This document shows, in pieces, positions 15,875 to 59,284 of a stretch of 64,000 nt of DNA (positions within the stretch are counted from its first letter, which is position 1; every line of letters starts with the position of its first letter). The translations under genes and the position numbers were made by a program. The DNA is from Ktedonobacteria bacterium (GTDB lineage Bacteria > Chloroflexota > Ktedonobacteria > Ktedonobacterales > JACDGC01). The stretch is taken from positions 12,326 to 76,325 of the forward strand of contig DAIDIC010000210.1 in the NCBI GenBank assembly GCA_027459525.1, in the 5' to 3' direction. Below the pieces are notes generated by a model. It had not been told where the DNA came from. It worked only from the letters and a program-made list of their open reading frames with translations, and searched no databases.

Positions 15875-16651
15875 ATGGACGCATCATCTTCGCGCAAAGC
15901 CCCAACCGGAGCATTTTTTATCATTTTAGGGATAATATTTGCGTTACTTGTTGGGATTATCATTCTAAAACTATCAGAAAATTTAGGAAAAAATAACGCA
16001 AATATCAGTATGACGCAAGTAATAACGGCAACCACAAATTTAAGCACAGGCATGGTGCTTTCTTCTAACCAAAGCGCTGCGCCCTACATCCTTATTTCTG
16101 CCGCCGTTCATGTTACTTCCATACCTCAAAGTTCTTTGCCGCCAAATGCGCTAATCTACACATCACAACAGCAATTAAACGATGCGCTGAATAATATGGT
16201 TGTGCAAAATACCATTCTCAATGGATCCATCTTACGGCAAAATGATCCTCGGCTCAGTCACTCCGGCGGACCTGCCGCAAGTTTAGCCAACAAAGATCCC
16301 TCCGATCTTCCTGCCGGAGATGTGCTGGTCGTTTTGCCGCTTACTTCACCGGCTATGCAAATCGGCGCAGTGCAGGGGGACCACATAGATATACTGGCAA
16401 CTGCGTGTATCGGTTCATCAGGCTCAGGCTCATGTCAAGTTGCGCAAACAACGCTGCAAAACGTGTATGTATACGCGGTTCCAGATTCGCAAACGCTCAT
16501 TGTTGCCTTAAGTCATCAAGACGCGCTGAATTTAAAAATACTCATTGAAACAACAAAAATCTCCATTGCGCTGCGCAAACCGGATGATACGGGACATATA
16601 TCAACAACGCCGGTTTCACCACAAACCATCTATAGTTTATTTGGATTTTAA
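15875..16651 (+). CDS. cpaB: Flp pilus assembly protein CpaB/RcpC-like
   Basis: N-terminal TM anchor followed by a CpaB-like domain. Position in the tad cluster. Confidence 0.7.
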   Translation: MDASSSRKAPTGAFFIILGIIFALLVGIIILKLSENLGKNNANISMTQVITATTNLSTGMVLSSNQSAAPYILISAAVHVTSIPQSSLPPNALIYTSQQQLNDALNNMVVQNTILNGSILRQNDPRLSHSGGPAASLANKDPSDLPAGDVLVVLPLTSPAMQIGAVQGDHIDILATACIGSSGSGSCQVAQTTLQNVYVYAVPDSQTLIVALSHQDALNLKILIETTKISIALRKPDDTGHISTTPVSPQTIYSLFGF

Positions 16652-16671
16652 AGGAAAGGAACATCAAAGCA

Positions 16672-17823: not shown

Positions 17824-17884
17824 ATAAAAACCCGGTAATCTGATTGATTACTGAGTATGATTTTCCGCACAAAAGGATTTTACA

Positions 17885-19267: not shown

Positions 19268-19273
19268 AGGCAA

Positions 19274-20260
19274 GTGCAGAATATGAGCAGCATACAAATA
19301 GTATTATTTGTTTTAAGCGTGTCGGCGGTATTATTATTTGCCTCCGGTATACGATTGATTTCAATGCGCAGATCACCGCTGGCCCGATTGATTAAACTGC
19401 AAACACCCGATACAACCCAGAAAATTCACGCAGTTCCATTTACTATTGCGACTGCAAAACATAAACAAGGAATTTTTGCGCAAAATCTTGAAAAATTGGC
19501 CAATCAACTAAACGCAGGGTCGAGAATTGAACAAACCATGCGGCTGGCCGGCATTAAACAAATGCAATTAGGTGATTATCTAACCGCCATCTCCACATTC
19601 ATAATCATCAGTATTATTATTGCGCTATGGACTCGCAATATCATCATCGGAATAGCCCTCATCGGGGCTTCCATCTTTCTGCCGCAATTCTGGCTGCAAA
19701 TGCGCGGAAAAAGGCGCTTAAAACTTATCGAGCAGCAATTGCCCGAATATATTTCCCACGTAATTACTATTTTAAAATCCGGCGCTATTTTAAAGGCAGC
19801 GCTGATTCAAGCGTTAGATGAGGTCCCTGAACCACTGGCAACTGAGTTGGGGTATGCGTTTCACAATCTGCAATTTGCGCCGATTCAAGATTCACTGAAT
19901 GAGTTATCGGACCAGATTCCCAGTAAAGATATTGTTCTGTTGGCGCAGGCTATAGCCATTCAAGTTGAAGGCGGCGGAGATATTATTTTTGTCTTAGAAA
20001 ATCTCAGCGCCATTATTCGCGAAAGAGTAAAGTTTCAAAAAGATGTCCTGTCGCTAACCTCGCAGCAACGTTTTTCCGGCAATATTATTGCGTTACTTCC
20101 GGTGGGATTTGTCATTCTTATACTTATCTTTAACCCAAATTATATTCTTGGCGTTTTTCGCATAACACATTGGCTGGGATACGCCATATTCATCGTTTCT
20201 ACTATTATGATTATGATCGGCCTTTGGGTTATGCAAAAAATCGCAAATATTGATGTTTAG
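19274..20260 (+). CDS. tadB: Tad platform membrane protein TadB
   Basis: T2SSF-like polytopic protein following cpaF. Start uncertain (GTG 19274 or ATG 19283). Confidence 0.8.
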   Translation: MQNMSSIQIVLFVLSVSAVLLFASGIRLISMRRSPLARLIKLQTPDTTQKIHAVPFTIATAKHKQGIFAQNLEKLANQLNAGSRIEQTMRLAGIKQMQLGDYLTAISTFIIISIIIALWTRNIIIGIALIGASIFLPQFWLQMRGKRRLKLIEQQLPEYISHVITILKSGAILKAALIQALDEVPEPLATELGYAFHNLQFAPIQDSLNELSDQIPSKDIVLLAQAIAIQVEGGGDIIFVLENLSAIIRERVKFQKDVLSLTSQQRFSGNIIALLPVGFVILILIFNPNYILGVFRITHWLGYAIFIVSTIMIMIGLWVMQKIANIDV

Positions 20261-20272
20261 AGGTCTCTTTGT

Positions 20273-21202
20273 ATGTTAGATATTCTCCCGCTTTTTGCTT
20301 CTATCAGCGCATCGCTCAGCATTATGTTTATCGTCATGGGGATCTCTCAACGCATGCGCAAGCCAAACAGCATTCAAAAACGCTTGGCGTTTGCCACACA
20401 GCAAATAAACGAAATGCATACGCGCAGAAATAAGAATCCCCTGAAAAAGACGATAAAATCATTCAATTCATTTACCTCTGGCCTGTCTAATACGTTTATT
20501 CCCCTGCGCATGCAGCGTAATATTATGGAAATTGCTCGCTTTGCAGGCAAAGATGATACTTTTGTCTCTTCATTTATCCTTATACGCTTCTTGCTCACAG
20601 GCAGCGGCGTTTTGTTATTTCTGCTGCTGTTCATCTTAAGCGGCGCGCCCGTCTCCAACTCTTTTATCATCAGTGCGCTGATGGGGTTTTTTATGTATAT
20701 GTTTCCTGTTATGTGGCTAAAAAATGCCGCAAAACGCCGGCAAATCGCCATTCGCAAAGATCTTCCCGATACTATTGATTTATTGATCCTCTGTTTAGAA
20801 AGTATCCCTTTCGATCAATCTCTCCAACGTGTTATCGATAAATCGTCCGGAGCAATAAAAGAAGAACTGCTGCACACACGTTCAGATATGAACATCAATA
20901 TTTCCCGCAGCGACGCTTTAAAAGCTATGGCAGACCGTGTGGGTATTGATGAAATCCGCATGATGACCAGCGCCATCATTCAAGCAGAAAAATATGGCAC
21001 ACCGCTGGCAAATGCCCTGCAAATACAAGCAGACGATATGCGCACAAAAAGACGCCAGCGCGCAGAAACAATGGCAAGACAAGCAACAGTGAAAATGATG
21101 TTTCCAACCGTAGCTTTCATCTTTCCTCCACTGTTGCTTATTATGGCCGCGCCAATTCTGCCAAAAATTATTCTGTTGGTCAATCCGGGAGCGCACATAT
21201 AA
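20273..21202 (+). CDS. tadC: Tad platform membrane protein TadC
   Basis: Second T2SSF-like protein (DLPDTIDLLILCLESG-type motif). Confidence 0.8.
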   Translation: MLDILPLFASISASLSIMFIVMGISQRMRKPNSIQKRLAFATQQINEMHTRRNKNPLKKTIKSFNSFTSGLSNTFIPLRMQRNIMEIARFAGKDDTFVSSFILIRFLLTGSGVLLFLLLFILSGAPVSNSFIISALMGFFMYMFPVMWLKNAAKRRQIAIRKDLPDTIDLLILCLESIPFDQSLQRVIDKSSGAIKEELLHTRSDMNINISRSDALKAMADRVGIDEIRMMTSAIIQAEKYGTPLANALQIQADDMRTKRRQRAETMARQATVKMMFPTVAFIFPPLLLIMAAPILPKIILLVNPGAHI

Positions 21203-21726
21203 TGCGCAAAATAGTATTTCAAGCACAAAAACACCGGCGCGGGCAAGCTATCGTTGAATTTGCATTAGTTGCGCCAATTTTATTTACGCTGATTTTTGGG
21301 ATCATCGAATTTGCTCTTATCGGCGCATCACTCTCAATTTGCGAAAACGCTGCGCAAAACGCTGTACATTTGCTTGCCGTCAACGGCGACACCAACTCGT
21401 CTATTGATACACAAGCAGTGCAATTAATACTCGGCCGCGCAAATATACTGCCGGTTATACAAATTCAATCGATCACCATTTTCCAATCTTCCGCCACTAA
21501 TTCGGGTCCGCAAATAAACGCAGAAAATATCTATTCGGGGCCGAGCGGAATACCCACAACACAAAACTGGCCAATATCGCAACGATTTTCTACCGTTTCA
21601 TCGCCGATTTTTGCCGGTATAGAAATTCAATTTACCTATAACTTGCCTTTTGCCTCTATCGGGTCCGGATCAATAATACATCTTCAGGCGCAGGCGTTTT
21701 CATTAATTATGCCTTCCGGAGGTTGA
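21202..21726 (+). CDS. TadE-like pseudopilin
   Basis: N-terminal RRGQAIVEFALVAPILFTLIFGIIEF TadE motif. Start overlaps the tadC stop. Confidence 0.75.
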   Translation: MRKIVFQAQKHRRGQAIVEFALVAPILFTLIFGIIEFALIGASLSICENAAQNAVHLLAVNGDTNSSIDTQAVQLILGRANILPVIQIQSITIFQSSATNSGPQINAENIYSGPSGIPTTQNWPISQRFSTVSSPIFAGIEIQFTYNLPFASIGSGSIIHLQAQAFSLIMPSGG

Positions 21727-22265
21727 TTACCGTGAAATACGCAAAAGGCCAATCAATCGTAGAATTTGTTTTAACAGCTACTGTATTATTAATCCTTCTC
21801 GGCGGCATACTCGATCTCGCTAATATATTAAACGCGCAAAATACGTTACAAAACGCCGCGTTTCAAGGCGCGCTGGCAGGATCGTTTTCCGGAAAAAACA
21901 CCGCCGCCGATTGCAGTATCCTTGCGGCAATTTATAACGGATCACAGGGGTTAAGTGGTGTAACCATCAGCCAAATTATTATCTATCAAGCAAATGTAAC
22001 AGGTAATCCTCTTGGAGGCTCACAGTCTATTGCCTATGAAGATATTTATGCCGGCAATCCCGGATGCAGCAGCGCAGCTGCGCCTCCGGCGCCAACAAGC
22101 GCCAATTGGCTGCCAGCAGCGCGCAATAATTTCATGTATCAAAACGCAAATTTAGGTATAAAAATTGTTTATGTTTATGCGTGGCAGACAAACCTGCTGC
22201 CATTCGGCAGTATAACCCTTTCAGTGAAAGCAGTTGCGCCGATGAATCCTCAGCCGGCCCCATAG
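21723..22265 (+). CDS. TadE-like pseudopilin (second copy)
   Basis: KGQSIVEFVLTATVLLILLGGILDL TadE motif. Non-ATG start (TTG 21723 or GTG 21732). Confidence 0.7.
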   Translation: MITVKYAKGQSIVEFVLTATVLLILLGGILDLANILNAQNTLQNAAFQGALAGSFSGKNTAADCSILAAIYNGSQGLSGVTISQIIIYQANVTGNPLGGSQSIAYEDIYAGNPGCSSAAAPPAPTSANWLPAARNNFMYQNANLGIKIVYVYAWQTNLLPFGSITLSVKAVAPMNPQPAP

Positions 22266-22274
22266 GAAAGCGCT

Positions 22275-24074
22275 ATGACAAAATTTTATTGTATGAAACA
22301 TGAAGCACAAATACGAGCAATTCTCAAAAGGACTCGCAAACCGCAAAAAGGACAAGCGTTGGTTTTATTTGCGTTCAGCGCCGTCATTCTGATTGCCATT
22401 GCCGGGCTGGCTATCGATGAAATTACGGCGTTTTTCCAAATGAATACTGCGCAAACAGCAGCAGACGCCGCCGCTATTGCCGCCGTTCCCTATGCGGCGT
22501 TTCCCTCAGCTGCAACCCCTGCGCCGGATGGCTCAAACGCCGTAGGAGCCGCAGATAGCGCCGCCGCGCAAAATGGATTTACTGACACAAGTAAAATTTC
22601 TGTTTCCACAACAATGCAGCCAATACCCAAAGTTACCGTCACTATTGCAGTTGGCCTTTCATTTACCCTAATATCACTAGTAGGTGTCAACTCAATAGGG
22701 GCAAGTGTAACGGCGACCGCCAGCATGCTACCACCGATTAATTCCGATAACTCCCAAAATTCCGTCGGGCTGCCCGGCAGCGGTGAATATGTTTTTTTGA
22801 CGGGACAAAATGACCTAAAAGAATTTGGTGATCCTTATTCTACACTTTGCGAAGATGGATGGAGTGACGCCTCCAACACAACCTACACCGACGCATCATC
22901 CTATATCTATCTTACACGGCTGGACACATACACCAACGCGCCGCAATACCCAACGGGACCACAGTGCAGCCCCGCCAATCCCGGCAATCCGGATGCTGTG
23001 CCCGGCGGATTTGGCGGACTTTTAACCGCAAGCAGCAGCGTTCCTAATGGTGAAAGTTATCTTGTTAAAATTCCACCAAACACAAAAAATATTGCGCTGT
23101 GGATTTATAATCCGCAATTTGTGTATCAAAACGGCGCAAATACCGGCAATTATTTCGATTATTTCGAGAATATTTTTTCGCCGCCATACTTTGATAATAT
23201 GCAATTTTATCCCCAAATTGCATATGCGCTTTACTCTGTTCCCGAATGGTATCACCGCAGCGCAGATACGCTGGTTTCCGCTATTTGGCCAAATAACACT
23301 GCGCCGCAGTCGGCGCCAAATGTATACTTGCCGGCTGGCGCATGGATGTATCTGCCTTCGCTTGATATGACATCTGCCGATCTATCCTTGCACGGCTGCT
23401 CTGGGGCGCTGATTCCGCAAAGCGGCAGCTATTATAATCCGCCAGTTACAACCGGTTTGGGCTGCGTTGCTGCGCCAAGCGATATTATGAATTGGACAGC
23501 TATGCCATACACATTCAACAATACAACATCCTCGCCACAGTATTATCGTTTTACCACTGATATCAGCGGCGGCTACGGGGTTCACGCATATGCGCTGGCC
23601 ATATGCGCAGACGGCGCCTCGCCGCCTTGTTTAGGAGAAGGAGCAACCATCAGCGCATGGAACACCCAAACTATCAACTTAAACGGCGCGCAGACAAATT
23701 ATCCTATTTTTACCATCCCGGCGGCGTATAAAGGGCAGCAAGTAACCGTAAGAATATTCAATCCCGGCGTGGCAGAATCCGATGAGAATACTGATCTGAG
23801 TGTTACCGGCCCGGCCAACGCCGGAACCATCACATACCCATCTTATTTGCGAACCACATCCGGCGCCGGCGGAACGACAATCGAAACATCAATTGCTGGT
23901 GATAACCTCTACCATGCAAAATGGATTTCTATAACTATTCAGCTTGCGCCAAATTACAACGGCGGGCAATGGTATCTCACTTATTCTATTTTTAACTCCT
24001 CTAATTTAACACCAATGCTGCCGATGACAGTTGCAGTGTCTTCACCCGGAAATCTTGTGCAATTATCTTCCTGA
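22275..24074 (+). CDS. TadG-like large pilus-associated protein
   Basis: QKGQALVLFAFSAVILIAIAGLAIDE TadG-type N-terminus. The remainder is N/Q/S/T/Y/P-rich with no recognised domain. Confidence 0.65.
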   Translation: MTKFYCMKHEAQIRAILKRTRKPQKGQALVLFAFSAVILIAIAGLAIDEITAFFQMNTAQTAADAAAIAAVPYAAFPSAATPAPDGSNAVGAADSAAAQNGFTDTSKISVSTTMQPIPKVTVTIAVGLSFTLISLVGVNSIGASVTATASMLPPINSDNSQNSVGLPGSGEYVFLTGQNDLKEFGDPYSTLCEDGWSDASNTTYTDASSYIYLTRLDTYTNAPQYPTGPQCSPANPGNPDAVPGGFGGLLTASSSVPNGESYLVKIPPNTKNIALWIYNPQFVYQNGANTGNYFDYFENIFSPPYFDNMQFYPQIAYALYSVPEWYHRSADTLVSAIWPNNTAPQSAPNVYLPAGAWMYLPSLDMTSADLSLHGCSGALIPQSGSYYNPPVTTGLGCVAAPSDIMNWTAMPYTFNNTTSSPQYYRFTTDISGGYGVHAYALAICADGASPPCLGEGATISAWNTQTINLNGAQTNYPIFTIPAAYKGQQVTVRIFNPGVAESDENTDLSVTGPANAGTITYPSYLRTTSGAGGTTIETSIAGDNLYHAKWISITIQLAPNYNGGQWYLTYSIFNSSNLTPMLPMTVAVSSPGNLVQLSS

Positions 24075-24081
24075 CCAAATA

Positions 24082-25038
24082 TCAGCGTGACCGGCGGGTA
24101 GTTTTGCTGCGGCTCTGCTTTATAAAAGGAAGAACTAACGTCGGCAGCGGCGGCGGAACCGATTCAATATACACGGTTTCTTCCTGCGAGTGCAGCGCGG
24201 CAAGCACAGCGTTTCCGTCGGCCGGCCTTTCCGCCGGATGAATGGAAAGACATTGCGAAATCAGTTTATCCAAATAAGCCGGCACATGCGGATTCAGCAG
24301 CGCCGGCCGCACAGCCGCCAATCGTCTCTGAGCTATTGCCGATAAATAGTTTTGCACACTCTGCGCCGGAAATGGCATTGCGCCGGTTACCAAGCGATAT
24401 AAGATAACCCCAAACGCAAACACATCGCACGCAGAAGAAATAGTGTCATACATCCATTGCTCCGGCGCTAAATACATCATTGCTTTCTCATTAAACATGC
24501 CGGTAACAGTTATACCGGTATCAGAAACTATTCTGGCAACGCCCATATCTGTTACTGTTACCGCGCCGGTTTTATCGGGAAAAATATTATCGGGATTTAA
24601 GTTGAGATGCATATAGCCTTTTGTATGGATAGCAGCAAGATACTGCGCTAATGTAAAACTAATTTTCTGAACAACACGCATAGTCAATAAGCGATTGCTT
24701 TTCATCAGTTCGGCAAGCGAAACCGCTTCAATCCATTGGGATATAATATATGGCTGTTCATCAACAATAAAAAAATCATATAACTGCGCCGCAGTTTGTG
24801 TATTACACTCCAACATAGCATGGCAGGCGCTCCAAAAACGAAACAAAGATTTTGCCGAAACCCGCGGCAAAAGCAATTGCTTTATTGCCGCTTTGCGCTG
24901 CAATTGTGTATCTATTCCGGCATACACTTTCGCGTATGCGCCGGAATGCATCAATGAATGGGTTTCATATCGATTTTCAAGAGTTAGACGAACAATATTA
25001 TTATTTTTTTTCTTAGTCCATGACATAACATATATCAC
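24082..25038 (-). CDS. Ser/Thr protein kinase-like protein, predicted pseudokinase
   Basis: Kinase fold markers AAIK, DMG, YLAPEQ, but the catalytic loop is HLNLNPDN instead of HRDxKPxN and the Gly-rich loop is degenerate. Start may be ATG 25026. Confidence 0.7.
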   Translation of the reverse strand: MIYVMSWTKKKNNNIVRLTLENRYETHSLMHSGAYAKVYAGIDTQLQRKAAIKQLLLPRVSAKSLFRFWSACHAMLECNTQTAAQLYDFFIVDEQPYIISQWIEAVSLAELMKSNRLLTMRVVQKISFTLAQYLAAIHTKGYMHLNLNPDNIFPDKTGAVTVTDMGVARIVSDTGITVTGMFNEKAMMYLAPEQWMYDTISSACDVFAFGVILYRLVTGAMPFPAQSVQNYLSAIAQRRLAAVRPALLNPHVPAYLDKLISQCLSIHPAERPADGNAVLAALHSQEETVYIESVPPPLPTLVLPFIKQSRSKTTRRSR

Positions 25039-32382: not shown

Positions 32383-34731
32383 TTACATCGGAAATAATAC
32401 TGCTTGTTCCGGGGGAGAAAAAAATTCGGCAAAAACGGCGCGGCTCAGCCCATTTTCTAATTTTGCGGCGTATTGATTGCGCAAAATTTTTTTATAATAT
32501 GCAACATCATAGTTGCGGGTATCTGCTCCGGTATATAAAGTAACTTGGCGCTGTCCGGCGTAATAAAACCGTATGCGTTCGCCTTTTGCCCATACCGTTT
32601 TGCCTGCCGCAAGCATCGCTTCATAGGGCGCTTCGCGGCGTGTTTGGCGGGTGTTTAGATATTCTTTGCTGCTTTTTGTCAGCCGCGCAGGTATCAGCAT
32701 ATCTTCTAACGGCAGCGCTTTTTCGGCAAGAAGCGTAAGATAGCGTTGAAATATTTGCGGGATAAGCGCGCTATTATCGCGCAGCAACGCCGAAACGATT
32801 TCCGTAAGAAAATCGGCGCCAAACTTCTCAAATTTGCTGGAGCGAAACGCCACACCTTTTAAGATGATGATATCGTCATAGGTAAGCAGCGCATAGTTTT
32901 TCACCTCATGCGAAAGCATGGCCGCATATCGGCCCTCATATTCCAAATGTATCAACGGGGGCAGCAAAGTGTCTACTTCTTGAACGATGGCGCGTTCCTC
33001 AGTTTCACTCCAAGATTCCGGAACACTAAAGTATACACCATCGGTATCAGCTTCAATTAATTCTGCGCCGCGCGCCTTAAGTTGTTCGCAAATAACATTC
33101 AAGGTATCACGGCCGCGCTTAGTAATTTCATTTGCAGCGTTCATATCGGCAAAGCGCGCTAAACGCACGGAGCCTAAATAGCCATAGGCCGAATTAATAA
33201 TAATCTTCATTGCTGCAGAAAGGCTGTTATAACCGGCGCGCGCATTTTCCGGCAAAGAAGTATCTTTAGATAATTTTTTTGCTTGCAGGCGCTGCTCAAC
33301 CAACCGATCGACAATTCCCAGCAAAGCGCCTAAGCTATCTTGCTGAGATCCAATATGAAATTGTCGCATTAAGGATGGATATAAACTTGCCACATCGGCT
33401 TTTACCACATGTTTTTTAACGCCGGCGGCAAATAAAATAGTTGCCGCGCCGGAATGCGTTGCGCCATTGGGCTGAGTATACGCGGGAATAGCAGTTTGCG
33501 CGCGCAGATATGCGCGAAGCAGCATCGGCTCCAAAATTCCTGTTGCGGGTCCGGCGTCTGCAGCTCGTTCTCCGCGCCGCGGCGCCATTTTAGCCAAAGC
33601 AAAGGCCGCGCCGCCTAAAATTTCAGCAATGGAACCGGCCTCTATCACATCATCCATCGCATAGGCGCGCACTGCGTCTGGCTGTGTTTTCCATGTGTCA
33701 TACACCGCGCCGCCGCTAAGATAAACACGGTTTGGCGCGGCAACTCCAAAATATTTCGCCGTATCTTTCAAACCATGGTTTGGCAAAGCGCGCGCGGCAA
33801 AATCAAAACGCCGCACTGCGTCCAGCGTATCTATGATTTCTCTGCCTTGAATGCTGTAGCGCTGCCGGCCCAAATTAGCAAGCGGAATGGCGTATGTATC
33901 AGAATCTTCGGTAAATGCGCGTACTGCGCCATACCCGCGGGCAGAGCCGCGCGCAGTTCCCAGCACAGATGGCGCGCCCTTTCGGCCCAGCGCCATAGCT
34001 ACGCCAAGCTGTTGCGCGCGATAGAATAAAAACGGCAAATCAAACCCATGGATATTATGGTTTTCCAAAATATCGGGATCGGTTTCCTGAACAACTCGAC
34101 AAAACGCTGCCAATAACTCTTTCTCTGCGGCGGCGTCATCGGCAGATTTTGCGCCAATATCCAAAATACCCTGAAAGCCAAAATTAGAATGAATGGCTAT
34201 AAGAAACACGTGACTATCAGACGGATTCAGACCAGTGGTTTCAATATCAAAGCGCAAACGCCGTATATCGTTAAAATCCAGCCCTTTATAATACGTTCGG
34301 CCACTGGCAATAAGATATTGTTCTTCAGGGGGCAGCCGCAAAACAATATCTTTGCTTAGTTCACCTATATGGCTGGCTTTTGGGTATCCGCGCTGTGCAG
34401 CGCCTGCTAAAATATTTCTTTCAAGCAAACTATTATTTGCGCAGGAAAGTTTCCACTGCAGCGCGCCGGTTCCTTGCAATTTTTGCGCATAGATAACGGT
34501 GGGGTCTGCCTTTTCGGGAAATTCATATTGTATTTTTGGATACGTTAGCATAGCCAGATCAGAAATAAGCGCCCATGGGAGAAAATAATCGCGCTCTAAA
34601 ACCACAGGCTCACGCAGCGATGTGCGCCGCCATACCATAACCGAACCATTGTGCTGCGCCAATATCGATACAATACCGGGAGTAGTATCCCATCCCCAAA
34701 GCCAATCTTCCGGTGAAGCAATACTCATCAT
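32383..34731 (-). CDS. polB: Family B DNA polymerase (Pol II-like) with intact 3'-5' exonuclease motifs
   Basis: Exo I FDIETTG, Exo II NHNIHGFDLPFL, Exo III YAMDDV. Pol A DVASLYPSLM, Pol B KIIINSAYGYLG, Pol C EADTDGVYF. Start set to ATG 34731 (AAGG 5 nt upstream). Confidence 0.9.
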   Translation of the reverse strand: MMSIASPEDWLWGWDTTPGIVSILAQHNGSVMVWRRTSLREPVVLERDYFLPWALISDLAMLTYPKIQYEFPEKADPTVIYAQKLQGTGALQWKLSCANNSLLERNILAGAAQRGYPKASHIGELSKDIVLRLPPEEQYLIASGRTYYKGLDFNDIRRLRFDIETTGLNPSDSHVFLIAIHSNFGFQGILDIGAKSADDAAAEKELLAAFCRVVQETDPDILENHNIHGFDLPFLFYRAQQLGVAMALGRKGAPSVLGTARGSARGYGAVRAFTEDSDTYAIPLANLGRQRYSIQGREIIDTLDAVRRFDFAARALPNHGLKDTAKYFGVAAPNRVYLSGGAVYDTWKTQPDAVRAYAMDDVIEAGSIAEILGGAAFALAKMAPRRGERAADAGPATGILEPMLLRAYLRAQTAIPAYTQPNGATHSGAATILFAAGVKKHVVKADVASLYPSLMRQFHIGSQQDSLGALLGIVDRLVEQRLQAKKLSKDTSLPENARAGYNSLSAAMKIIINSAYGYLGSVRLARFADMNAANEITKRGRDTLNVICEQLKARGAELIEADTDGVYFSVPESWSETEERAIVQEVDTLLPPLIHLEYEGRYAAMLSHEVKNYALLTYDDIIILKGVAFRSSKFEKFGADFLTEIVSALLRDNSALIPQIFQRYLTLLAEKALPLEDMLIPARLTKSSKEYLNTRQTRREAPYEAMLAAGKTVWAKGERIRFYYAGQRQVTLYTGADTRNYDVAYYKKILRNQYAAKLENGLSRAVFAEFFSPPEQAVLFPM

Positions 34732-34797
34732 GAAAACCTTTGCGAGATATTTTGTTCTAAGTATATCATAGCGCAAAAACCGCAGGAAAGTCTGCAG

Positions 34798-35312: not shown

Positions 35313-36512
35313 TCAGTCAAGATATTCTTTCAGACGGCGCATTTTGCTTGGCATGCGCAGTTTACGAAGCGCTTTCGATTCTATTTGGCGAATGCGCTCG
35401 CGGGTAACACGGAATTCGCGGCCAACCTCTTCTAATGTGCGGCCTTTGGTGCCATCTAAGCCAAAGCGCAGTTGCAAAACTTTGCGTTCTCTGTCGGTTA
35501 AAGCGGCCAGCACTTCATCTACCTGTTCGCGAAGAATTTTTTTTGTTGCGGCTTCGGGTGGGGTAAGGGAAGTATGATCTTCCAGAAAATCACTTAAATG
35601 CGAATCATCTTCTTCACCAATGGGGGTTTCCAAACTCACCGGCTCTTGATTCACTTTCACAATTTCACGGACTTTATCAGGGCTGATATTCATTTCCAAG
35701 GCAATTTCTTCAGGAAGAGGTTCACGTCCAAGTTCTTGGGTTAACCGACGAGTGATGCGCATCATTTTATTGATGGTTTCAACCATATGAACGGGAACGC
35801 GAATAGTGCGGGATTGATCGGCAATAGAGCGTGAAATTGCTTGGCGAATCCACCATGTGGCGTATGTGCTGAACTTATAGCCTTTAGTATAATCAAATTT
35901 TTCAACCGCGCGCAGTAAACCGATATTGCCTTCTTGAATAAGATCCAGCAAACTCATGCCTCGGCCAACAAATTTTTTAGCAACGCTGACAACTAGGCGA
36001 AGGTTAGCTTCTGTCAGTCGTTTTTGCGCTTCAATACCGTCATTGATAAGGCGTTTATTACGTTGGGTGTGTGTTTTTTTAATTTCAACCAGTCCTCGTT
36101 GCACACGAATAGCAAACGCAACTTCTTCATCATAAGAAAGCAGGGGAACTTTACCAATTTCGCGCAGATATACCCGCACAGGGTCATCGGCAGAGCATTC
36201 AGACTCTAGGGAAAGCAAGCTGGAGGAATGAGCGATATGGGTATGTACGCCATTAGAGTCATTTGCTTCTTCAGTATTTTCTTCTTCAAAACTCCAAGAG
36301 GCTTCATGCATATCTTCTGTTTCAATATCACCGGCAACGAATTGCTGCGCAATAATCTGAAATTGAGCAGAGGGGTGAGCGCTGTCTGAAAAACCATGAT
36401 CTGAAGATGTATCGGCAAAAATAGGCTCTCGATCGACAAGCTGCTGATCAGCGGTGTTCCACTGAGATGAAAGCGAGCGACGGCTATATTGGCGCATGAA
36501 CAATTCCTCCAA
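35313..36512 (-). CDS. rpoD: Primary RNA polymerase sigma factor (RpoD/SigA)
   Basis: Regions 1.2 to 4 are present: [78 protein letters not shown]. Confidence 0.95.
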
Positions 36513-36633: not shown

Positions 36634-38643
36634 TTACGTTTGAAGCAAAGCTTCATCATCGATACGTTTGCGTTTAGCTAAAAGCGTAAAGCTTTTTTCG
36701 CGCAACGCCTGAACAGAACTGAAATCGTTTTGTTCAGCTGCTTCATGCTGTAATACAGATATTTGGTTGATTGCTTCCGTCAACCTGACTTTTTTAAGTC
36801 GTAACGCCAGTTGCTTGGCTGTCCGTGCCAAAAGAGCGCTATCTTGTGTTTGCTGAACGGTATGCATTGATTTCAACCGCTCATAAACATCGACTAAAAC
36901 AGGTGAAGATTCTATCAACGCTGACGCAGTACTTTCACTATCCTGTCTGCCGCTTGCTTGCAAAATCAGGCTAAATAACGCTCTTGTCTCGGTTCCTTCG
37001 AAGTCATTCACTTCAATTATAACATATATCTCCTGTGCAATAATAGGGTAGTTAATAATCAGGGAAAGGATCTGTTCTTCAAGCGTGTTTCCTAGTCTCA
37101 TCCGCTCCGAAATAGCTCCGGATCTGGGAGATTCTGCCACAGAAGCGTCATCTGTGTCATAGTACTTATTAGCTATGCCATCTGGCGCAGTACTGCTTTG
37201 AGATCGTTTTTGTGCGGCGCCGGCGGCATATTTTCGGCGCAGCCGATTCATTTCATGAATAGCGTCGCGTTCCTGTAACTGCATTTCGCTGGCAACGCGG
37301 CGCACATACATATCGCGTTTTAAAGGATCTGCCATAACCGCAATTGCCTGAAGCAATTCATGGCTGGCTTTCAGGCGTTCGTAAGAATTGCGCAGATCGT
37401 GTGCGCCCATAATATTTTTTATGGCAAATTCAATTAAAGGCATTGCCGCATTCATTTGCTGCTGCCACGCCACAGGATTGGCGCGAATAAATTCATCAGG
37501 ATCTATACCATCCGGCAGCTCCATAATAGTAATCTCAGCGTTTACCTGTTCTTCAAACTGTATAGGGCTTTGTGGCAGCGGTGAATATTTCCCTGCTTTT
37601 TTACCTTTAAACCGCGGCTCTTCAGCTACAGGAGCCAAGTGTTGAGGAACTAACGAACGATCGAAGCCCTCCTGCGCAACTTCGATAGCGCGCAGCGTCG
37701 CCATTTGGCCGGCAGAATCGGGGTCGAGCGCCAAGGTGAGCTTATTGGTTAATTTCTTAATAATTTCCACATGTTTGGCGGTTATGGCGCTGCCAATACA
37801 AGCAACCGTATTACGAAAATGATATTGCTGCGCAATAATTGCGTCGAAATATCCCTCTACAATAACGATTCGGTCTTCTTTGCGCACCGCTTCCCGCGCG
37901 GTGTCTAAGCCATACAGCGTTGCGCTTTTATCAAACAGCGGTGTTTGCGGCGAGTTTAAATATTTAGGCGTTCCGCCGCCCAATTCACGGCCGCCAAACG
38001 CTATTACTCCGCGAGTATCGCGAATGGGAAACATAATACGGCTGCGAAAATATTCTGCCGTAAAACCGGTTTCCTCTTTTATATGCGCTAAACCGGCTTC
38101 AATAATCAACTGGCTGGGAAAACCCTGCTCTTGCAGAAATTGTAGCGCGCCGCCATGTTCCGGCGCATATCCCAAACGAAATTTTATGATTGTTTCGTTT
38201 GTAACTCCCCGAGATTGTAAATATGATCGCGCTTTTGCCGCCGCGTTCGCCGCCAGCAATTGATGATGGTACCACAGCGCCGCCGCTTCATTCACCTCAC
38301 GCAATTTCTGCAAATGTTCGCGCCGCTCTGCAGATCCCGCAGAAAACTCAATATCCGTAAAACCAATTGGAATCCCGGCTTTGTCTGCAAGCTCACTCAG
38401 CGCATCGTGAAATGTCAGAGATTGTGTTTTCATCAAAAAGGTGAATATATCGCCGCCTTCGCCGCAACCAAAGCAGCGCCACGTTCCGGTTTCGGGAAAG
38501 ACATAAAAAGAAGGTGTTTTTTCCCCATGAAACGGGCATAACCCTTTATAGCCTTTTCCGGAGCGCTTTAACTCCACAACCGCCCCTATTTCCTGAACAA
38601 CATCTATTCGGGCCTTAATCTGATCGATAGGGGAATCTGCCAT
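36634..38643 (-). CDS. dnaG: DNA primase
   Basis: Zn ribbon CPFHGEKTPSFYVFPETGTWRCFGCGEGGD, TOPRIM IVIVEGYFDAI. Start at ATG 38643 with GGGAGG 7 nt upstream. Confidence 0.95.
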   Translation of the reverse strand: MADSPIDQIKARIDVVQEIGAVVELKRSGKGYKGLCPFHGEKTPSFYVFPETGTWRCFGCGEGGDIFTFLMKTQSLTFHDALSELADKAGIPIGFTDIEFSAGSAERREHLQKLREVNEAAALWYHHQLLAANAAAKARSYLQSRGVTNETIIKFRLGYAPEHGGALQFLQEQGFPSQLIIEAGLAHIKEETGFTAEYFRSRIMFPIRDTRGVIAFGGRELGGGTPKYLNSPQTPLFDKSATLYGLDTAREAVRKEDRIVIVEGYFDAIIAQQYHFRNTVACIGSAITAKHVEIIKKLTNKLTLALDPDSAGQMATLRAIEVAQEGFDRSLVPQHLAPVAEEPRFKGKKAGKYSPLPQSPIQFEEQVNAEITIMELPDGIDPDEFIRANPVAWQQQMNAAMPLIEFAIKNIMGAHDLRNSYERLKASHELLQAIAVMADPLKRDMYVRRVASEMQLQERDAIHEMNRLRRKYAAGAAQKRSQSSTAPDGIANKYYDTDDASVAESPRSGAISERMRLGNTLEEQILSLIINYPIIAQEIYVIIEVNDFEGTETRALFSLILQASGRQDSESTASALIESSPVLVDVYERLKSMHTVQQTQDSALLARTAKQLALRLKKVRLTEAINQISVLQHEAAEQNDFSSVQALREKSFTLLAKRKRIDDEALLQT

Positions 38644-39022
38644 AGCGCCGCCTCCCAAGTCTCCGGCGGAAATATGCCCGAAATATCAAGGATTCGGTAC
38701 CACCGGCTGATTATATCGATTTGGTTTTTGTGTATGATGTTCTGTAACAGCAGAACTATTCCGCTGCCGCAGATATGTGTTACGTTACGCTTTATTGCGC
38801 TGCGCTTAGTGATATTATTGTACAAATCAGCAGAACATTTCATTTGTATGGGAAATTTGCTGCAATAAAAACTGCGTTACGCCATTTGACGGCGGCCAGA
38901 AATAATAAAACACAATATATTCATTGCCGGCAAAATTATTTTGGTCCCATACCTGCGAATAATTCAATTCATTCCATGATACAATATGCATATGAAACGA
39001 TTGCCTGAAAGGACGCTTTGTA

Positions 39023-40321: not shown

Positions 40322-42109
40322 ATGGGATGGAGTGAACTGATTAACTCTGAACTGGATGGGTATAAAATTATTAAAGAAATAGCCCGCGGAGGCACTTCGC
40401 GGGTATATCTTGGCGTGCATTTACAAACAGGGCAGGAAACTGCAATAAAGGTAATGGCGGTTAATGTAGACGGCGGAGAGCAAAATTCCTTTGTCCGCAG
40501 ATTTGAACAGGAATCTCAAGCAGTGCTGATGCTGAATCATCCCAATATTGTGCAGGTATATTCCGTCGGGAAAAATGATGAATTTGTATATATGATTATG
40601 CAATTGGTCTCCGGCGGCACGCTGCGCGATAAACTCGGCAAGCCGCTGCCGGTTCCTGAAGCCGTATCGCTGATTTCACAAATGGCGCGCGCGCTGCATC
40701 ATGCGCACCAACGCAATATAGTGCACCGTGATGTAAAGCCAGCCAATATGCTGGTAGACGATAAAGACACTTCACATCTTTTACTGGCAGATTTTGGTAT
40801 TGCCAAAATCATCGGCATGCAAGGCATCACCAAAACGGGCACAGCGTTGGGCACGCCGGAATATATGGCGCCGGAGCAGGCCCAAGGCGAAGTTATTGAC
40901 CACCGCGCAGATATTTATGGCTTAGGCTGTGTGCTTTACGAAACGTTGGCCGGCCGCCCGCCTTTTTCTGGGCCTACCGCTTTTTCAACCTGTTATCAAC
41001 ATGTGCATTACCGTCCGCCATATATTCGGGGATTTAACCCGGATGTTTCACGAAAACTTGCGCTGATTATTGAAAAAGCGCTGGCTAAAAATCCCGCAGA
41101 TCGTTTTGCCACTGCCGAGGAGTTTGCCGAAGCGCTATATCCATTTTCGGAAGCGCAGCCGGATAGACATATCCCGCCTGCCCCACCCATTGAAGGCTTA
41201 AATACCGACAGAGATTTTTCCCGCCCGCAGCTGCGGCTGGCGCCAAACCCAGAAATACAGGAACAACAGTCATCTTCTTTTGAGGAGCCAATTTCAGTTG
41301 AAATAAATCCGCCGGTGTTGGATATTTCTATGATTCGCCGAGCCACGATACCGACGCCCACAGCGCACACCGATGACGAAACCACTCGCCAAACCACCGA
41401 GGTAACCCCGGTAGCCACACCATTGCGGCCGCGCCACACCAGACCGATAGAAAAAAATTCTCCGGTTAAAAATCACGCCGTATCTCCGCCGGTTATGCAA
41501 CCGCACACCGAGGCTCCGCGCCACAGCAGCAACGCTTCCGCCGGCTCCGGATCAGATCACCGCGCACAACCGCCGGCGCGCAAGCCCGATAATAAATTGG
41601 GAAAAGCGCTTATTTTCCTTGCGGCTATTTTAGCCCTAGGGTCTATCGCTTTAGCTGTGCCGCATTTTTTAAATAAAAACCAGCCGGCAGCTTTGGCTAC
41701 AGCTACACTGGCGCCTACAGACACAGCCACACTGGCTCCTACAGCCACACTGGCGCCAACGGTAACCGCCGCGCCCGCAACAGCAACCACCGCGCCACAG
41801 GCAGGCGCTATTACAAAAGCGACAGCAAATTCCGTAATAGATCTAAGCTGTTCTATTTCCAAATCCGTTTTTCCGGCGTATTCACAAGTATATATTAACA
41901 TTTGTATAAACTCCGGATATGGCTCGGGAGTCATTTCTGCTGTATATTACCGCAACGGCGCATTTATAATACGTTCATCTTATTCCGGCGCTTCCGCCGG
42001 AGGATATTATCTTTCCGCAGACTCTTCCGTCATGCAGCCGGGATCTTACACCGTAGATGTTCAATGGAATAGTCAAACTGAATATACGTTATTATTTACT
42101 GTTTCATAG
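40322..42109 (+). CDS. Transmembrane Ser/Thr protein kinase (PknB-like, canonical catalytic motifs)
   Basis: GGTSRVY, AIKV, HRDVKPANML, DFGIAK, APEQ. Then a P/T/A-rich linker, one TM helix and an unassigned extracellular domain. Confidence 0.9.
   Translation: MGWSELINSELDGYKIIKEIARGGTSRVYLGVHLQTGQETAIKVMAVNVDGGEQNSFVRRFEQESQAVLMLNHPNIVQVYSVGKNDEFVYMIMQLVSGGTLRDKLGKPLPVPEAVSLISQMARALHHAHQRNIVHRDVKPANMLVDDKDTSHLLLADFGIAKIIGMQGITKTGTALGTPEYMAPEQAQGEVIDHRADIYGLGCVLYETLAGRPPFSGPTAFSTCYQHVHYRPPYIRGFNPDVSRKLALIIEKALAKNPADRFATAEEFAEALYPFSEAQPDRHIPPAPPIEGLNTDRDFSRPQLRLAPNPEIQEQQSSSFEEPISVEINPPVLDISMIRRATIPTPTAHTDDETTRQTTEVTPVATPLRPRHTRPIEKNSPVKNHAVSPPVMQPHTEAPRHSSNASAGSGSDHRAQPPARKPDNKLGKALIFLAAILALGSIALAVPHFLNKNQPAALATATLAPTDTATLAPTATLAPTVTAAPATATTAPQAGAITKATANSVIDLSCSISKSVFPAYSQVYINICINSGYGSGVISAVYYRNGAFIIRSSYSGASAGGYYLSADSSVMQPGSYTVDVQWNSQTEYTLLFTVS
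41702..41761 (+). repeat. Three 18-nt tandem units inside the kinase gene (ATLAPT linker)
   Basis: GCTACACTGGCGCCTACA, a 6-nt spacer, then GCCACACTGGCTCCTACA and GCCACACTGGCGCCAACG. Confidence 0.6.
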
Positions 42110-56312: not shown

Positions 56313-57644
56313 ATGGCGGCACAACCCGATTTGTATTCAATCAAAGTTCCTCCGTCCTCACTGGTGGTTCTTGTCGGCCCTGCCGCTTCAGGGAAAAGTT
56401 CGTGGGCAAAAAAACATTTCTCACCATCGCAAATTGTATCTTCTGATGCGCTCCGTTCCATTGTAGCTGATGATGAAGCTATGCAAGAAGCTTCATCCGA
56501 TGCGTTTATGCTGCTGTATAAAATTATCGATGCGCGGCTGCGCCGCGGCCTGCTCACTGTTGTTGATTCTACTGCGCTGACTGCAGATTCACGCAGAAAA
56601 CTTCTTACGATTGCAGCAGGTTATGGGCGCTCTGCAATTGCTGTAATTTTTCATATTGATGAAAAATTACAATATGAATGGAATGACAGACGTTCGCGCA
56701 GCGTAAATCAGCGTGTGCTGCACGAACACCGCGAACTTGCGGCAGATGCAATGAGCCACATACCTCACGAAGGCTTTTCAGCCTATTACACCATCCATTC
56801 CCCGCAAATGATTGAATCTGTTCAGGTTATCCGCAACATCGTAGATGATTCGGGGCCGTTTGATATTATCGGCGATGTGCATGGGTGTTTTAGCGAACTG
56901 TGTGATTTATTGATGAAATTGGGATATGAGCAGAGTCCTGGCAATCAATTTCTCTGGAAACATCCGCAACATAGAAAATTAGTGTTTGTTGGTGATTTAT
57001 GCGACCGAGGCCCGGATTCTGTTTCGGTCATCCGGCTGGCGATGGAGATGCAAAAAGCGCGCTTGGCGTGGCTTGTGCAAGGAAATCACGATTATAAAAT
57101 CGCAATTAAAATCGACGCAAACGATCCGCTTCCGGCGCAGCCGCAAAACGCCGGAGAAATTACCATAAGTGAAATTTTAAACGCCAGCGCAAACGCACCG
57201 CAGCTGAAACAGCAAATTATACACTTGCTGAAGTTTGCGCCGGGTTACCTGATTTTTGATAATGGCGGGTTAGTTATCACACATGGCGGTATCCTTGATT
57301 CTATGATCGGCGGTTGGAGTCCGCGAATTAAATCATTTTGCATGTATGGTGAGGTGTTTTCACCTAATAATAATAATTCTGAACGTATGGACTGGATCCA
57401 TCGGCGCCAAGTTCACAGAACCAGCCCGCTAATCGTGTACGGGCACACACCAATGCAAAATCCATATATCGTAAATAAAACAGTGGATATCGATACAGGC
57501 TGCTGTTATGGCGGCAAATTAACGGCGTATAGATATCCCGAACACACAACAGTTTGTGTCAGCGCCAAGGCAGCCTATGCCCGCAAAAAACGTAAAAATT
57601 TTCTTTCTGAAAGAGAAAACGGCAAAGAAAGAGGCGCTGATTGA
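56313..57644 (+). CDS. pnkp: Polynucleotide kinase-phosphatase (Pnkp-like) lacking the ligase domain
   Basis: P-loop kinase SLVVLVGPAASGKSSWAKKHF followed by a metallophosphoesterase: GPFDIIGDVHGC, VFVGDLCDRGPDS, GNHD, GHTP. From memory the domain order and motifs follow Clostridium thermocellum Pnkp residues 1 to about 425. The protein ends where the ligase domain would begin. Confidence 0.75.
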   Translation: MAAQPDLYSIKVPPSSLVVLVGPAASGKSSWAKKHFSPSQIVSSDALRSIVADDEAMQEASSDAFMLLYKIIDARLRRGLLTVVDSTALTADSRRKLLTIAAGYGRSAIAVIFHIDEKLQYEWNDRRSRSVNQRVLHEHRELAADAMSHIPHEGFSAYYTIHSPQMIESVQVIRNIVDDSGPFDIIGDVHGCFSELCDLLMKLGYEQSPGNQFLWKHPQHRKLVFVGDLCDRGPDSVSVIRLAMEMQKARLAWLVQGNHDYKIAIKIDANDPLPAQPQNAGEITISEILNASANAPQLKQQIIHLLKFAPGYLIFDNGGLVITHGGILDSMIGGWSPRIKSFCMYGEVFSPNNNNSERMDWIHRRQVHRTSPLIVYGHTPMQNPYIVNKTVDIDTGCCYGGKLTAYRYPEHTTVCVSAKAAYARKKRKNFLSERENGKERGAD

Positions 57645-57736
57645 CAAAGCAAAAGCCGAAACGGAACTGGCGCATTCTCCCTTTCCGGCTGCCGAAGCCG
57701 AACACAACTCTTTTAACCAGAAACGAGGATGAACGC

Positions 57737-59014
57737 ATGGCTACATATCTAATTTTAAGCGATCTGCATTTAAGCGGCGGCGCGGCAGATCCGTGGAACC
57801 CTATTCGGCAGAAGGCGTTTGAAGAAATTACTAACGCCGCTATGCCTGGCCAAAGCTTTGCCGATGATTCGGTTGAACTTATTTTTAATGGCGACACCTT
57901 TGATTTTCTGAACACTCCCCCTTCATTGGCAAATCATCCTGCTACCGATGTAGCGACAGCGCATGAAAAATGGTCCGCCATTGCATTGGCGCATGATCCA
58001 TGGTTTCAGGCGCTTCGCAAATTTACCGCTATTCCCGGCCGAAAAATTACCTTCCTCATTGGCAATCACGATCTCGAATTGTGGTATCCTTCCATTCGCG
58101 CGCGCATACGCTCGGCCATTCACGCTGCTCCTGGGCTAGTGCAGTTTTGTCTGACTCAGTCTTACCAGCCAAGAACAGATTTGGTAATAGCCCACGGCTG
58201 CCAGCAAGACATTTTTAACTATATCCCCAATATTTGGGAAGCAGACACAGAGCCATCAGGGCCAGATCATCTGGAACGAAATGATATGAGAACCGCCCCG
58301 GTCGGTGACTTAAAACTTCCGTGGGGTTCGCGCTATTACTACCAAATTATGCAGCCAATGCTGGAAATGTACCCATATCTCATTCATATGAATCCGGAAC
58401 TCACTTTACACGAGCAAATTGCGCTATTTTGTTTATTACAGCCAAAATTAGCAGAGCAAAACGCCGCAAAAATGCAAAATTTGGTTACGTCTCCAATTCA
58501 TTTTCCAAGTTTTTCCACCGGTGATATCGCACAGCTTTTTGCAGATATTACCCAACTGCAAAACCAAATTATCGGGGAATTACGCGAAACAGTACATATA
58601 CCGGCTTCCAATTCAACAGAAGAGTATGATCGATTATTGAACATACTAAAGTTTTCCGGCGTTTCCGATGCGTTACGACGTATTATTACCACTCCCCACG
58701 CAGAGTATCCCGTACAGTTAGCTCCGCAAAACAGCGCTTTTTATATATACGGACACACACACTTCGCCGGACGATGGCGCAATGGCGCAAATCAAACAGC
58801 GATTAATACGGGAACATGGATTCCTCAATTTACCCGCCCCAAAGACGCTGAGTGGAACCCTGAATTCGAGCAGTGGTTTATGCAGCCCAATTCCACGCCT
58901 TATCCGGGAGCAGACACATCGCGACTTACTCTTGCGTGGACCCGCGCATACCCGCACAGCGCATCTTCCACCGAATTAATCGAATGGAAGAACGGCAGTT
59001 TTATCCTCGTATAA
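57737..59014 (+). CDS. Calcineurin-like metallophosphoesterase, unknown specificity
   Basis: ILSDLHLSGG, NGDTFDF, GNHDLE, GHTH motifs. GAGGA RBS before ATG 57737. The track ORF start at 57641 overlaps pnkp. Confidence 0.75.
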   Translation: MATYLILSDLHLSGGAADPWNPIRQKAFEEITNAAMPGQSFADDSVELIFNGDTFDFLNTPPSLANHPATDVATAHEKWSAIALAHDPWFQALRKFTAIPGRKITFLIGNHDLELWYPSIRARIRSAIHAAPGLVQFCLTQSYQPRTDLVIAHGCQQDIFNYIPNIWEADTEPSGPDHLERNDMRTAPVGDLKLPWGSRYYYQIMQPMLEMYPYLIHMNPELTLHEQIALFCLLQPKLAEQNAAKMQNLVTSPIHFPSFSTGDIAQLFADITQLQNQIIGELRETVHIPASNSTEEYDRLLNILKFSGVSDALRRIITTPHAEYPVQLAPQNSAFYIYGHTHFAGRWRNGANQTAINTGTWIPQFTRPKDAEWNPEFEQWFMQPNSTPYPGADTSRLTLAWTRAYPHSASSTELIEWKNGSFILV

Positions 59015-59023: not shown

Positions 59024-59068
59024 AGCAGGGATTCAAAAAATATGGCGGCGCGCCGGTGAATCCCTGCT
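59024..59068 (+). terminator. 11-bp hairpin after the metallophosphoesterase gene
   Basis: AGCAGGGATTC, 23-nt loop, GAATCCCTGCT, starting 10 nt after the stop. No clear U-tract. Confidence 0.4.
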
Positions 59069-59210
59069 CGTTAATGATACCGCTTATCAAAGATTTCACC
59101 AAGCAAGCTCACGAAGGCGCGGCGATATTGGGGTTGAACATTAGTTTTTCTCAAAAGCAACATGATAGGGGCGGTTTTAATGCATGGTGGTTTAGGAGAG
59201 GAAGAAAGAG

Positions 59211-59284
59211 TGGGCAGTACAAGACTCGAACTTGTGACCTCGTCGGTGTGAACGACGCGCTCTAACCAACTGAGCTAACTGCCC
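59211..59284 (-). tRNA. tRNA-Val (anticodon CAC)
   Basis: Minus strand GGGCAGTTAGCTCAGTTGGTTAGAGCGCGTCGTTCACACCGACGAGGTCACAAGTTCGAGTCTTGTACTGCCCA folds as a cloverleaf: 7-bp acceptor, GCTC/GAGC D stem, CGTCG/CGACG anticodon stem with loop TTCACAC, ACAAG/CTTGT T stem. CCA is not encoded. Confidence 0.95.

Follow-up and report, generated by a model that had tools for sequence, protein, structure and literature searches.

Does a bacterial Pnkp-type kinase-phosphatase that lacks its ligase domain work together with the metallophosphoesterase encoded directly behind it, or are the two genes neighbours by accident? This question is raised by positions 56313-59014 of a 64,000-nucleotide (nt) stretch of DNA from a Ktedonobacteria bacterium (GenBank assembly GCA_027459525.1, contig DAIDIC010000210.1, positions 12,326 to 76,325 of the forward strand; "the window" below refers to this whole stretch). 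The DNA is chromosomal and comes from an uncultured, soil-type member of the Chloroflexota, and the segment is filled by two open reading frames (ORFs) on the plus strand, ORF1 and ORF2. ORF1 very probably heals nucleic acid ends as a stand-alone enzyme of the Pnkp type. ORF2 looks like an active, catalytically complete binuclear metallophosphoesterase and, judged by its sequence and structural model, represents a previously undescribed lidded clade. We tentatively propose, with confidence a little short of even, that the two are co-transcribed and process the ends of broken nucleic acids, more likely of DNA, leaving the joining to unlinked enzymes. The coordinates of the predicted pair are as follows (CthPnkp, Pnkp of C. 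thermocellum; CthPnk, its kinase).

ORF1, 56313..57644, plus strand: stand-alone ligase-less Pnkp-type 5'-kinase/2',3'-phosphoesterase (predicted), 443 amino acids plus stop; from TIGR04075 and PDB entries 4j6o and 4gp6
ORF1 kinase module, 56361..56825, plus strand: residues ~17-171, P-loop GPAASGKS; from the alignment to CthPnk and the clade alignment
ORF1 binuclear metallophosphoesterase module (lambda-phosphatase/PrpE-like), 56835..57596, plus strand: residues ~175-428; from the alignment to CthPnkp
Spacer between ORF1 and ORF2, 57645..57736, plus strand: 92 nt, with GAGGA at 57725-57729
ORF2, 57737..59014, plus strand: lidded binuclear metallophosphoesterase (predicted) of an uncharacterised, Ktedonobacteria-centred family, 425 amino acids; from motifs and AlphaFold2 model
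ORF2 helical lid insertion, 58208..58744, plus strand: residues ~158-336, between motifs IV and V; from the AlphaFold2 model

A preliminary description of this DNA, made from the letters alone, had read ORF1 as a 443-residue protein with a kinase followed by a lambda-phosphatase-like module, as in Pnkp, and Pfam, TIGR04075 and PDB matches all agree with that reading. Pfam placed AAA_33 at residues 17-136 and Metallophos at residues 182-382. The NCBIfam model TIGR04075 (bacter_Pnkp) matched with an expectation value (E) of 2.5e-115 and 386.6 bits over model positions 2-423 of 851, a span that covers the kinase and phosphatase parts only. The score is about half of the curated equivalog cutoff of 750 bits because the match ends at model position 423. 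The best PDB matches were the CthPnkp phosphatase (4j6o, E 3.7e-49) and kinase (4gp6, E 5.9e-33), with ApaH (E ~1e-9) and lambda phosphatase (E ~1e-4) ranking far behind. ORF1 scored 171 bits on the CthPnkp phosphatase vs. ~41 bits on ApaH; it groups with Pnkp, not with the ApaH/PrpA-type phosphatases that had been named as the other possible affiliation.

The catalytic residues tell the same story. K28, S29, D45 (the general base) and R48 of the ORF1 kinase correspond to K21, S22, D38 and R41, which are essential in CthPnk (PMC3902929). The acceptor contact T80 is conserved as T87 and the lid residues R120/R123 as R126/R129; the stacking residue R116 is replaced by W123. The nine essential residues of the CthPnkp phosphatase (D187, H189, D233, R237, N263, H264, H323, H376, and D392; PMC3675462) are present in ORF1 as D188, H190, D228, R232, N258, H259, H324, H378, and D394. 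None of the essential kinase or phosphatase residues varies among 29 aligned sequences of the closest ORF1 clade, and since they are fully conserved we infer that ORF1 has both kinase and phosphoesterase activities. The C-terminus lies ~15 residues past the phosphatase fold, where the ligase domain would start, and the adenylyltransferase/ligase family PF16542 had no Pfam match in ORF1. The preliminary description had likewise put the end of the protein at the point where the ligase domain would begin.

PF16542 is also missing from 94 of the 120 best ORF1 homologues, most of which are 414-470 amino acids long and which come from Ktedonobacterales, Spirosoma, Desulfofundulus and others. As far as such a census of sequences can tell, the ligase-less Pnkp is a real and common architecture rather than a truncated form. 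These homologues are now annotated merely as "AAA family ATPase" or "protein phosphatase". They usually stand alone, and in other phyla they have unrelated neighbours. A literature search found no description of a ligase-less Pnkp or of the AAA_33 plus Metallophos architecture. A truncated or frameshifted full-length Pnkp is ruled out at the present locus: ORF2 is an unrelated metallophosphoesterase, and there are many natural ORF1 homologues of ~430 amino acids.

Some "ligase-less" database matches are artefacts of split systems, as shown by Dictyobacter vulcani (L171:6514-10568, BKZW01000005.1). Here, Hen1 is followed by a 485-residue kinase-phosphatase ORF and then by an abutting 369-residue PNKP_ligase ORF, which may reflect a frameshift or a natural split. 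Split canonical Pnkp was also seen at two metagenome loci. The ORF1-ORF2 locus does not belong to this split type.

The usual partners of bacterial Pnkp were not found around ORF1, in line with the preliminary description, which had reported Hen1 and a separate Rnl as absent. Pfam scans of ~40 window ORFs detected no ligase, Hen1 or RtcB, and when 25 Hen1 proteins and 25 Pnkp ligase halves were compared with the window by tblastn, only the end of ORF1 itself matched. Hen1 and an RNA-ligase domain were absent from the window and from 19 of 19 ligase-less loci tested. A search of metagenomes for relatives of ORF1 returned mostly canonical Pnkp of 850 amino acids and so was chiefly of use as a positive control: Hen1 was directly upstream at 72 of the 80 loci, which full-length Pnkp dominates.

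ORF2 had been described as a co-directional phosphoesterase of approximately 425 residues, which its five motifs and the AlphaFold2 model bear out. The motifs are D9-x-H11, G52-D53, G109-N110-H111-D112, H153 and G339-H340-x-H342 (SDLH, NGDxFD, GNHD, HGCQ, and GHTH); all five are strictly conserved across 16 homologues and largely so across 64. Pfam PF00149 scored 17.6 bits on the N-terminal part, below the 21.5-bit cutoff, and several homologues carry PF00149 or PF12850. ORF2 had no match in NCBIfam, PADLOC, PHROGs or a PDB sequence search. Its AlphaFold2 model, obtained at a predicted local distance difference test (pLDDT) score of 94 and a predicted template modelling score of 0.93, consists of a metallophosphoesterase core, a helical lid of ~180 residues and a C-terminal beta extension. 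A Foldseek search of the PDB with this model gave generic members of the superfamily only; purple acid phosphatase, Rv0805 and PolD DP1 were retrieved at probability 1.0, with template modelling (TM) scores of 0.3-0.4 that are low because of the lid. The lid contains an invariant LPWGSRYY segment and has an isoelectric point (pI) of about 4.9. When it was modelled alone (pLDDT 77), a fold search gave no solved structure with E below 1. For the window pair, ORF1 is basic (pI 8.4) and ORF2 acidic (pI 5.5).

Searched for in 1.84 billion cluster representatives, the ORF2 family comprises a core of ~20 clusters (E below 1e-50) and 88 clusters reaching 1e-30; the looser family numbers ~2,000 clusters of metallophosphoesterases of ~360-520 residues. 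When each species is represented by one genome, hardly any full-length relative falls outside Ktedonobacteria. A 2.5-kb contig with a group-A homologue (L005, JAJPKG010000101.1) comes from a metagenome-assembled genome labelled "Proteobacteria bacterium"; the other close relatives are Ktedonobacteria, and the label is probably a binning error. Distant relatives in Bdellovibrionota, Myxococcota and archaea have housekeeping neighbours and are uninformative.

LpxH (COG2908, UDP-2,3-diacylglucosamine pyrophosphatase) is the known enzyme that ORF2 most resembles, with shared SDLHL and GDxFDF motifs and a helical cap ahead of GHTH, and some ORF2 homologues are labelled "LpxH" by the Joint Genome Institute (JGI). 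A profile search ranked it first for ORF2, weakly (5k8k, E 7e-5), followed by PolD DP1. However, LpxH is ~240 residues long with a small cap and has GNRD (P. aeruginosa), whereas ORF2 has 425 residues, a lid of ~180 residues and GNHD, which is found in all 16 close homologues. No NCBIfam LpxH model matched ORF2 and LpxH was not among the Foldseek top 50. We conclude from the motif, the size and the curated models that ORF2 is not LpxH. To our knowledge, Chloroflexota are monoderm and without lipopolysaccharide, and Ktedonobacteria are a class without lipid A synthesis. ORF2 also had no specific similarity to the Pnkp phosphatase.

The preliminary description had ORF2 overlapping the ORF1 stop codon. 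That is true of its longest frame, which begins at TTG 57641 and overlaps by 4 nt, but not of the likely start: ORF2 homologues align from ATG 57737, and GAGGA is found 7 nt upstream of that codon. The product is therefore likely to be 425 residues long and to follow a 92-nt gap. No terminator-like or promoter-like site was found in this spacer, the sequence of which is conserved with one close relative only (L003). Downstream of ORF2 are two further features:

Hairpin, 59024..59068, plus strand: 12-bp stem, no U tract, between the convergent ORF2 and tRNA-Val genes
tRNA-Val(CAC), 59210..59284, minus strand: Rfam match; boundary marker outside the cassette

Both had been noted before, the hairpin with a stem of 11 bp. 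The tRNA-Val gene runs the other way, toward ORF2, and so lies outside the unit; a role for it is not plausible. The hairpin (free energy -25.3 kcal/mol, z -2.7), whose loop includes an internal GGCGCGCC palindrome, may be a transcript-end or stability element. An Rfam scan of the spacer and 3' region for regulatory RNA yielded the tRNA alone.

We examined whether ORF2 homologues recur beside Pnkp-like genes, as the preliminary description had left to be checked. The closest ORF1 clade (at least 43% identity) was sampled in ~11 lineages. In four of them (the window with L003, L002, L163, and L165/166), an ORF2 homologue is directly downstream on the same strand with gaps of 12-110 nt, at 38-43% ORF2 identity among the four. 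L003 is the closest relative of the window; the proteins of the two are 87% (ORF1) and 84% (ORF2) identical and both genes are under purifying selection, with ratios of nonsynonymous to synonymous substitution rates (dN/dS) of 0.09 and 0.10, respectively. The paired loci have no further gene in common and their flanks all differ, which argues for selection on the pair. Conservation was thus found in part of the clade, and it did not extend elsewhere: from the ORF2 side, a Pnkp-like gene was within 10 kb at 2 of ~61 full-length family loci (L002 and L003), besides the window. The L163 and L165/166 pairs came from sampling on the ORF1 side and not from this genome scan.

Both families also have other neighbours. 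Members of the large sister group of the ORF2 family are encoded immediately ahead of polA, on the same strand, at nearly every Ktedonobacteria locus that has enough downstream sequence. polA was detected at 50 of 55 loci; most of the other five end at contig edges, L021 being the exception. These loci are numbered L010-L063 and include L014:9986-14682, Ktedonosporobacter rubrisoli (L017), Thermosporothrix hazakensis (L038) and Thermogemmatispora (L050/L062). The gene order NTP-transferase/PGM, epimerase, metallophosphoesterase, polA, aminotransferase and glycogen debranching enzyme is conserved. The association with polA, as read from gene order, is suggestive only. On the ORF1 side, the ligase-less homologue at L174:6001-10895 (GCA_027459705.1; 47% identical to ORF1) is followed after a 42-nt gap by a 1190-residue protein that combines Peptidase_M78 (IrrE-like), UvrD helicase and PD-(D/E)XK nuclease domains, with a TIR-domain protein encoded upstream. 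A separate module for repair or for conflict may be encoded here. Other unpaired genes of the clade adjoin an SMC/AAA_23 ATPase or are near Ada/AlkA-Ogt genes.

ORF1 shares with CthPnkp and other bacterial Pnkp the N-terminal kinase, the lambda-phosphatase-like 2',3'-phosphoesterase that follows it, and the essential residues, and differs from them in lacking the C-terminal PF16542 domain and an adjacent Hen1. The preliminary description had compared the locus with the Pnkp1-Rnl-Hen1 system of Capnocytophaga gingivalis (PMC4411300), where the kinase-phosphatase is likewise encoded apart from the ligase. The comparison is misplaced. In that system, Rnl and Pnkp1 are encoded in one operon and Hen1 is needed as well, whereas the window has neither a ligase nor Hen1. 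Pnkp1 is a T4-Pnkp homologue (PMC4411300), and according to PMC3592404 the T4 Pnkp phosphatase is of the DxDxT acylphosphatase type; the analogy fails because the ORF1 phosphatase is a metallophosphoesterase. Bacteriophage T4 Pnkp itself resembles ORF1 in being a stand-alone 5'-kinase/3'-phosphatase with the ligase for healed ends encoded separately, but its phosphatase is of the DxDxT acylphosphatase superfamily and it has no metallophosphoesterase partner. TIGR01663 matched ORF1 weakly and in the kinase part only (E 0.011).

A possible precedent for ORF2 is offered by the metallophosphoesterase (MPE) of the Pseudomonas putida Lhr-Core/MPE/Exo/Lig operon, which like SbcD/Mre11 is a binuclear enzyme encoded beside DNA repair genes. 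The P. putida enzyme incises single-stranded DNA, and the 3'-PO4 ends that it produces have to be healed by a Pnkp-type phosphatase (PMC7826289); by analogy it could serve as a mechanistic template for ORF2 acting ahead of ORF1. ORF2 has no detectable specific homology to the P. putida MPE or SbcD/Mre11; the helical lid replaces the capping domain of Mre11, and no gene for Lhr, SbcC/Rad50 (SMC-type), a helicase or a ligase adjoins ORF2 in the window.

In the model that we tentatively favour, ORF1 and ORF2 would be co-transcribed and act on the same broken ends, which are more likely those of DNA. The part of ORF2 would be that of a phosphodiesterase that incises, trims or removes a blocking group, and it could thereby yield or expose 3'-PO4/5'-OH ends, as is documented for the P. 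putida MPE. The P-loop kinase of ORF1 would convert 5'-OH to 5'-PO4 and its Mn/Ni-dependent binuclear phosphoesterase would convert 2',3'-cyclic or 3'-phosphate to 3'-OH. Unlinked PolA and a DNA or RNA ligase would then fill and seal the healed ends; unlike Pnkp-Hen1, the pair would have no built-in sealing or 2'-O-methylation step. The constant gene order and strand, the short gaps in four divergent lineages and the spacer free of terminator-like sites are consistent with a functional linkage. Healing without sealing, on RNA or DNA, had already been suggested, and this remains plausible; nothing favours RNA over DNA, and the neighbours (polA, the UvrD/PD-(D/E)XK helicase-nuclease, the SMC-like ATPase, and Ada/Ogt) make us lean toward DNA. 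We also considered a bolder version, in which the ORF2 family would be a new class of nucleic acid end-processing metallophosphoesterase (a nuclease or an end-deblocking enzyme/pyrophosphatase) with a novel helical lid and would partner, in Ktedonobacteria, PolA or ligase-less Pnkp, and the window pair would be the first bacterial "Pnkp + MPE" DNA end-cleaning module, with a logic like that of eukaryotic PNKP and its accessory end-processing factors. This we regard as unlikely, though worth stating.

Several observations weigh against a joint role in end processing. Seven of the ~11 sampled lineages (L164, L167, L168, L169/170, L172/173, L174, and L175) are unpaired, and in three assemblies both genes are present but on different contigs (P0074 and P0004 in GCA_009712145.1; L174 and L007 in GCA_027459705.1; L173 and L010 in GCA_036557885.1). 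ORF1 and ORF2 give congruent neighbour-joining trees (L163 with L174/L007, L165 with L168/L001, and the window/L003 with L002), so the adjacency may be one ancestral event that has since been broken several times. A single ancestral rearrangement is probably what these trees reflect, and it weakens the evidence for coupling. The association with polA could be mere inherited synteny, since it is found inside a block of unrelated housekeeping genes. As for the protein, the acidic pI of ORF2 (4.7-5.6) and its lid (4.4-5.4) is atypical of a nucleic acid-binding surface, and LpxH, the nearest profile match, is a nucleotide-sugar pyrophosphatase. Assignment to SbcD/Mre11 was rejected (profile E 0.11; Foldseek E 5e-3 and TM 0.31; no specific similarity), as was PdeM (no TIGR04123 match). 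Because it recurs in only some relatives, the pairing is a modest lead for a repair module and not a demonstrated system.

The main rival is that the two genes are unrelated neighbours, an explanation that we consider doubtful but quite possible. ORF1 would heal ends alone, ORF2 would be a housekeeping enzyme for a non-polymeric substrate (a nucleotide-diphosphate conjugate, a dinucleoside polyphosphate or a cyclic nucleotide, with LpxH-like pyrophosphatase chemistry), and their adjacency would have come about by chance in this lineage and not yet have been lost in all of its members. The solitary ligase-less homologues elsewhere, the rarity of a Pnkp-like neighbour in the ORF2-side scan, the congruent trees, the LpxH profile match and the acidic protein and lid all agree with this, and Ktedonobacteria are known from these comparisons to keep the order of unrelated genes over long blocks. 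It is harder to reconcile with a pair kept at ~40% protein identity though all flanking genes differ, with the short same-strand gaps and lack of an intervening terminator, with polA, also a gene for a nucleic acid enzyme, being the other conserved neighbour of the ORF2 family, or with the failure of ORF2 in the LpxH motif and size tests. If the end-processing pair is instead dedicated to RNA, ORF1 would heal tRNA or rRNA ends left by ribotoxins (2',3'-cyclic phosphate and 5'-OH), ORF2 would be a second cyclic phosphodiesterase or 3'-processing enzyme, and an unlinked RtcB or Rnl would seal. CthPnkp, the closest characterised relative of ORF1, is an RNA repair enzyme, and ORF2 retains the phosphate-binding His of GNHD, which has been linked to 2',3'-cyclic phosphodiesterase ability (PMC3675462). 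The sole specific support for RNA is the ancestry of ORF1; CthPnk phosphorylates DNA oligonucleotides too (PMC3902929), Hen1, RNA ligase and RtcB are missing from the window and the 19 ligase-less loci gave none, the recurrent neighbours are DNA enzymes, and a second cyclic phosphodiesterase would be redundant because ORF1 is predicted to carry one. A dedicated RNA repair role is therefore improbable in our estimate.

It is very unlikely that ORF1 does not act on polynucleotides at all. It would then be a PrpE/ApaH-like diadenosine tetraphosphate (Ap4A) hydrolase or a protein phosphatase fused to a small-molecule or protein kinase, and both ORFs would be phosphoesterases of nucleotide signalling. 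PrpE (Bacillus subtilis) and ApaH do belong to the same metallophosphoesterase branch as the ORF1 phosphatase, and their NCBIfam models matched ORF1 (NF010148 PrpE, E 1e-56 and 192 bits; ApaH, E 1e-22 and 81 bits); many homologues are labelled "protein phosphatase" by JGI and the PHROGs label is "NinI-like phosphatase". However, both hydrolases are single-domain proteins without a kinase, the scores are under the respective cutoffs of 340 and 176 bits, and the PrpE score is far below the 387 bits of the collinear two-domain match to Pnkp. The acceptor residues specific to polynucleotide kinases (D45, R48, and T87) are invariant, and the CthPnkp phosphate contacts are kept as R232 and H259. Least likely of all, and scarcely to be expected, is that the pair serves in anti-phage defence or toxin immunity. 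Links between RNA repair systems and ribotoxin conflicts are common (PMC4411300), and L174 has the TIR-domain protein upstream and the helicase-nuclease downstream; against this, neither protein had a PADLOC match, inheritance is vertical, and the chromosomal setting is a housekeeping one. A phage origin is ruled against by the uniform GC content around the pair and the lack of a PHROG match for ORF2.

The surroundings in the window are those of an ordinary chromosome, with dnaG-rpoD, an EF-G-like gene, YebC, Tad pilus genes and ABC transporters and with no mobile-element genes near the pair. A family-B DNA polymerase of 797 residues with exonuclease/RNase H-like domains is encoded at 32383-34776 (minus strand) and adjoins rpoD (35313-36512) and dnaG (36634-38658), a bacterial PolB in a housekeeping setting. 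The Tad/Flp-type pilus cluster at 15875-24074 encodes CpaB-like, response-regulator/ParA-like ATPase, T2SSE ATPase, two T2SSF and TadE-like proteins, and two Ser/Thr protein kinase genes are located at 24082-25038 (minus strand) and 40322-42109 (plus strand).

If the pairing is not functional, the outcome is improved annotation for two gene families only. If it is functional, the pair would represent a bacterial end-healing module in which healing is separate from both sealing and Hen1 marking. It would provide the first functional handle on the ligase-less Pnkp proteins and on a lidded metallophosphoesterase family that occurs throughout the sampled Ktedonobacteria and is usually encoded beside polA, and it would suggest that Pnkp-type enzymes serve bacterial DNA repair besides RNA repair.

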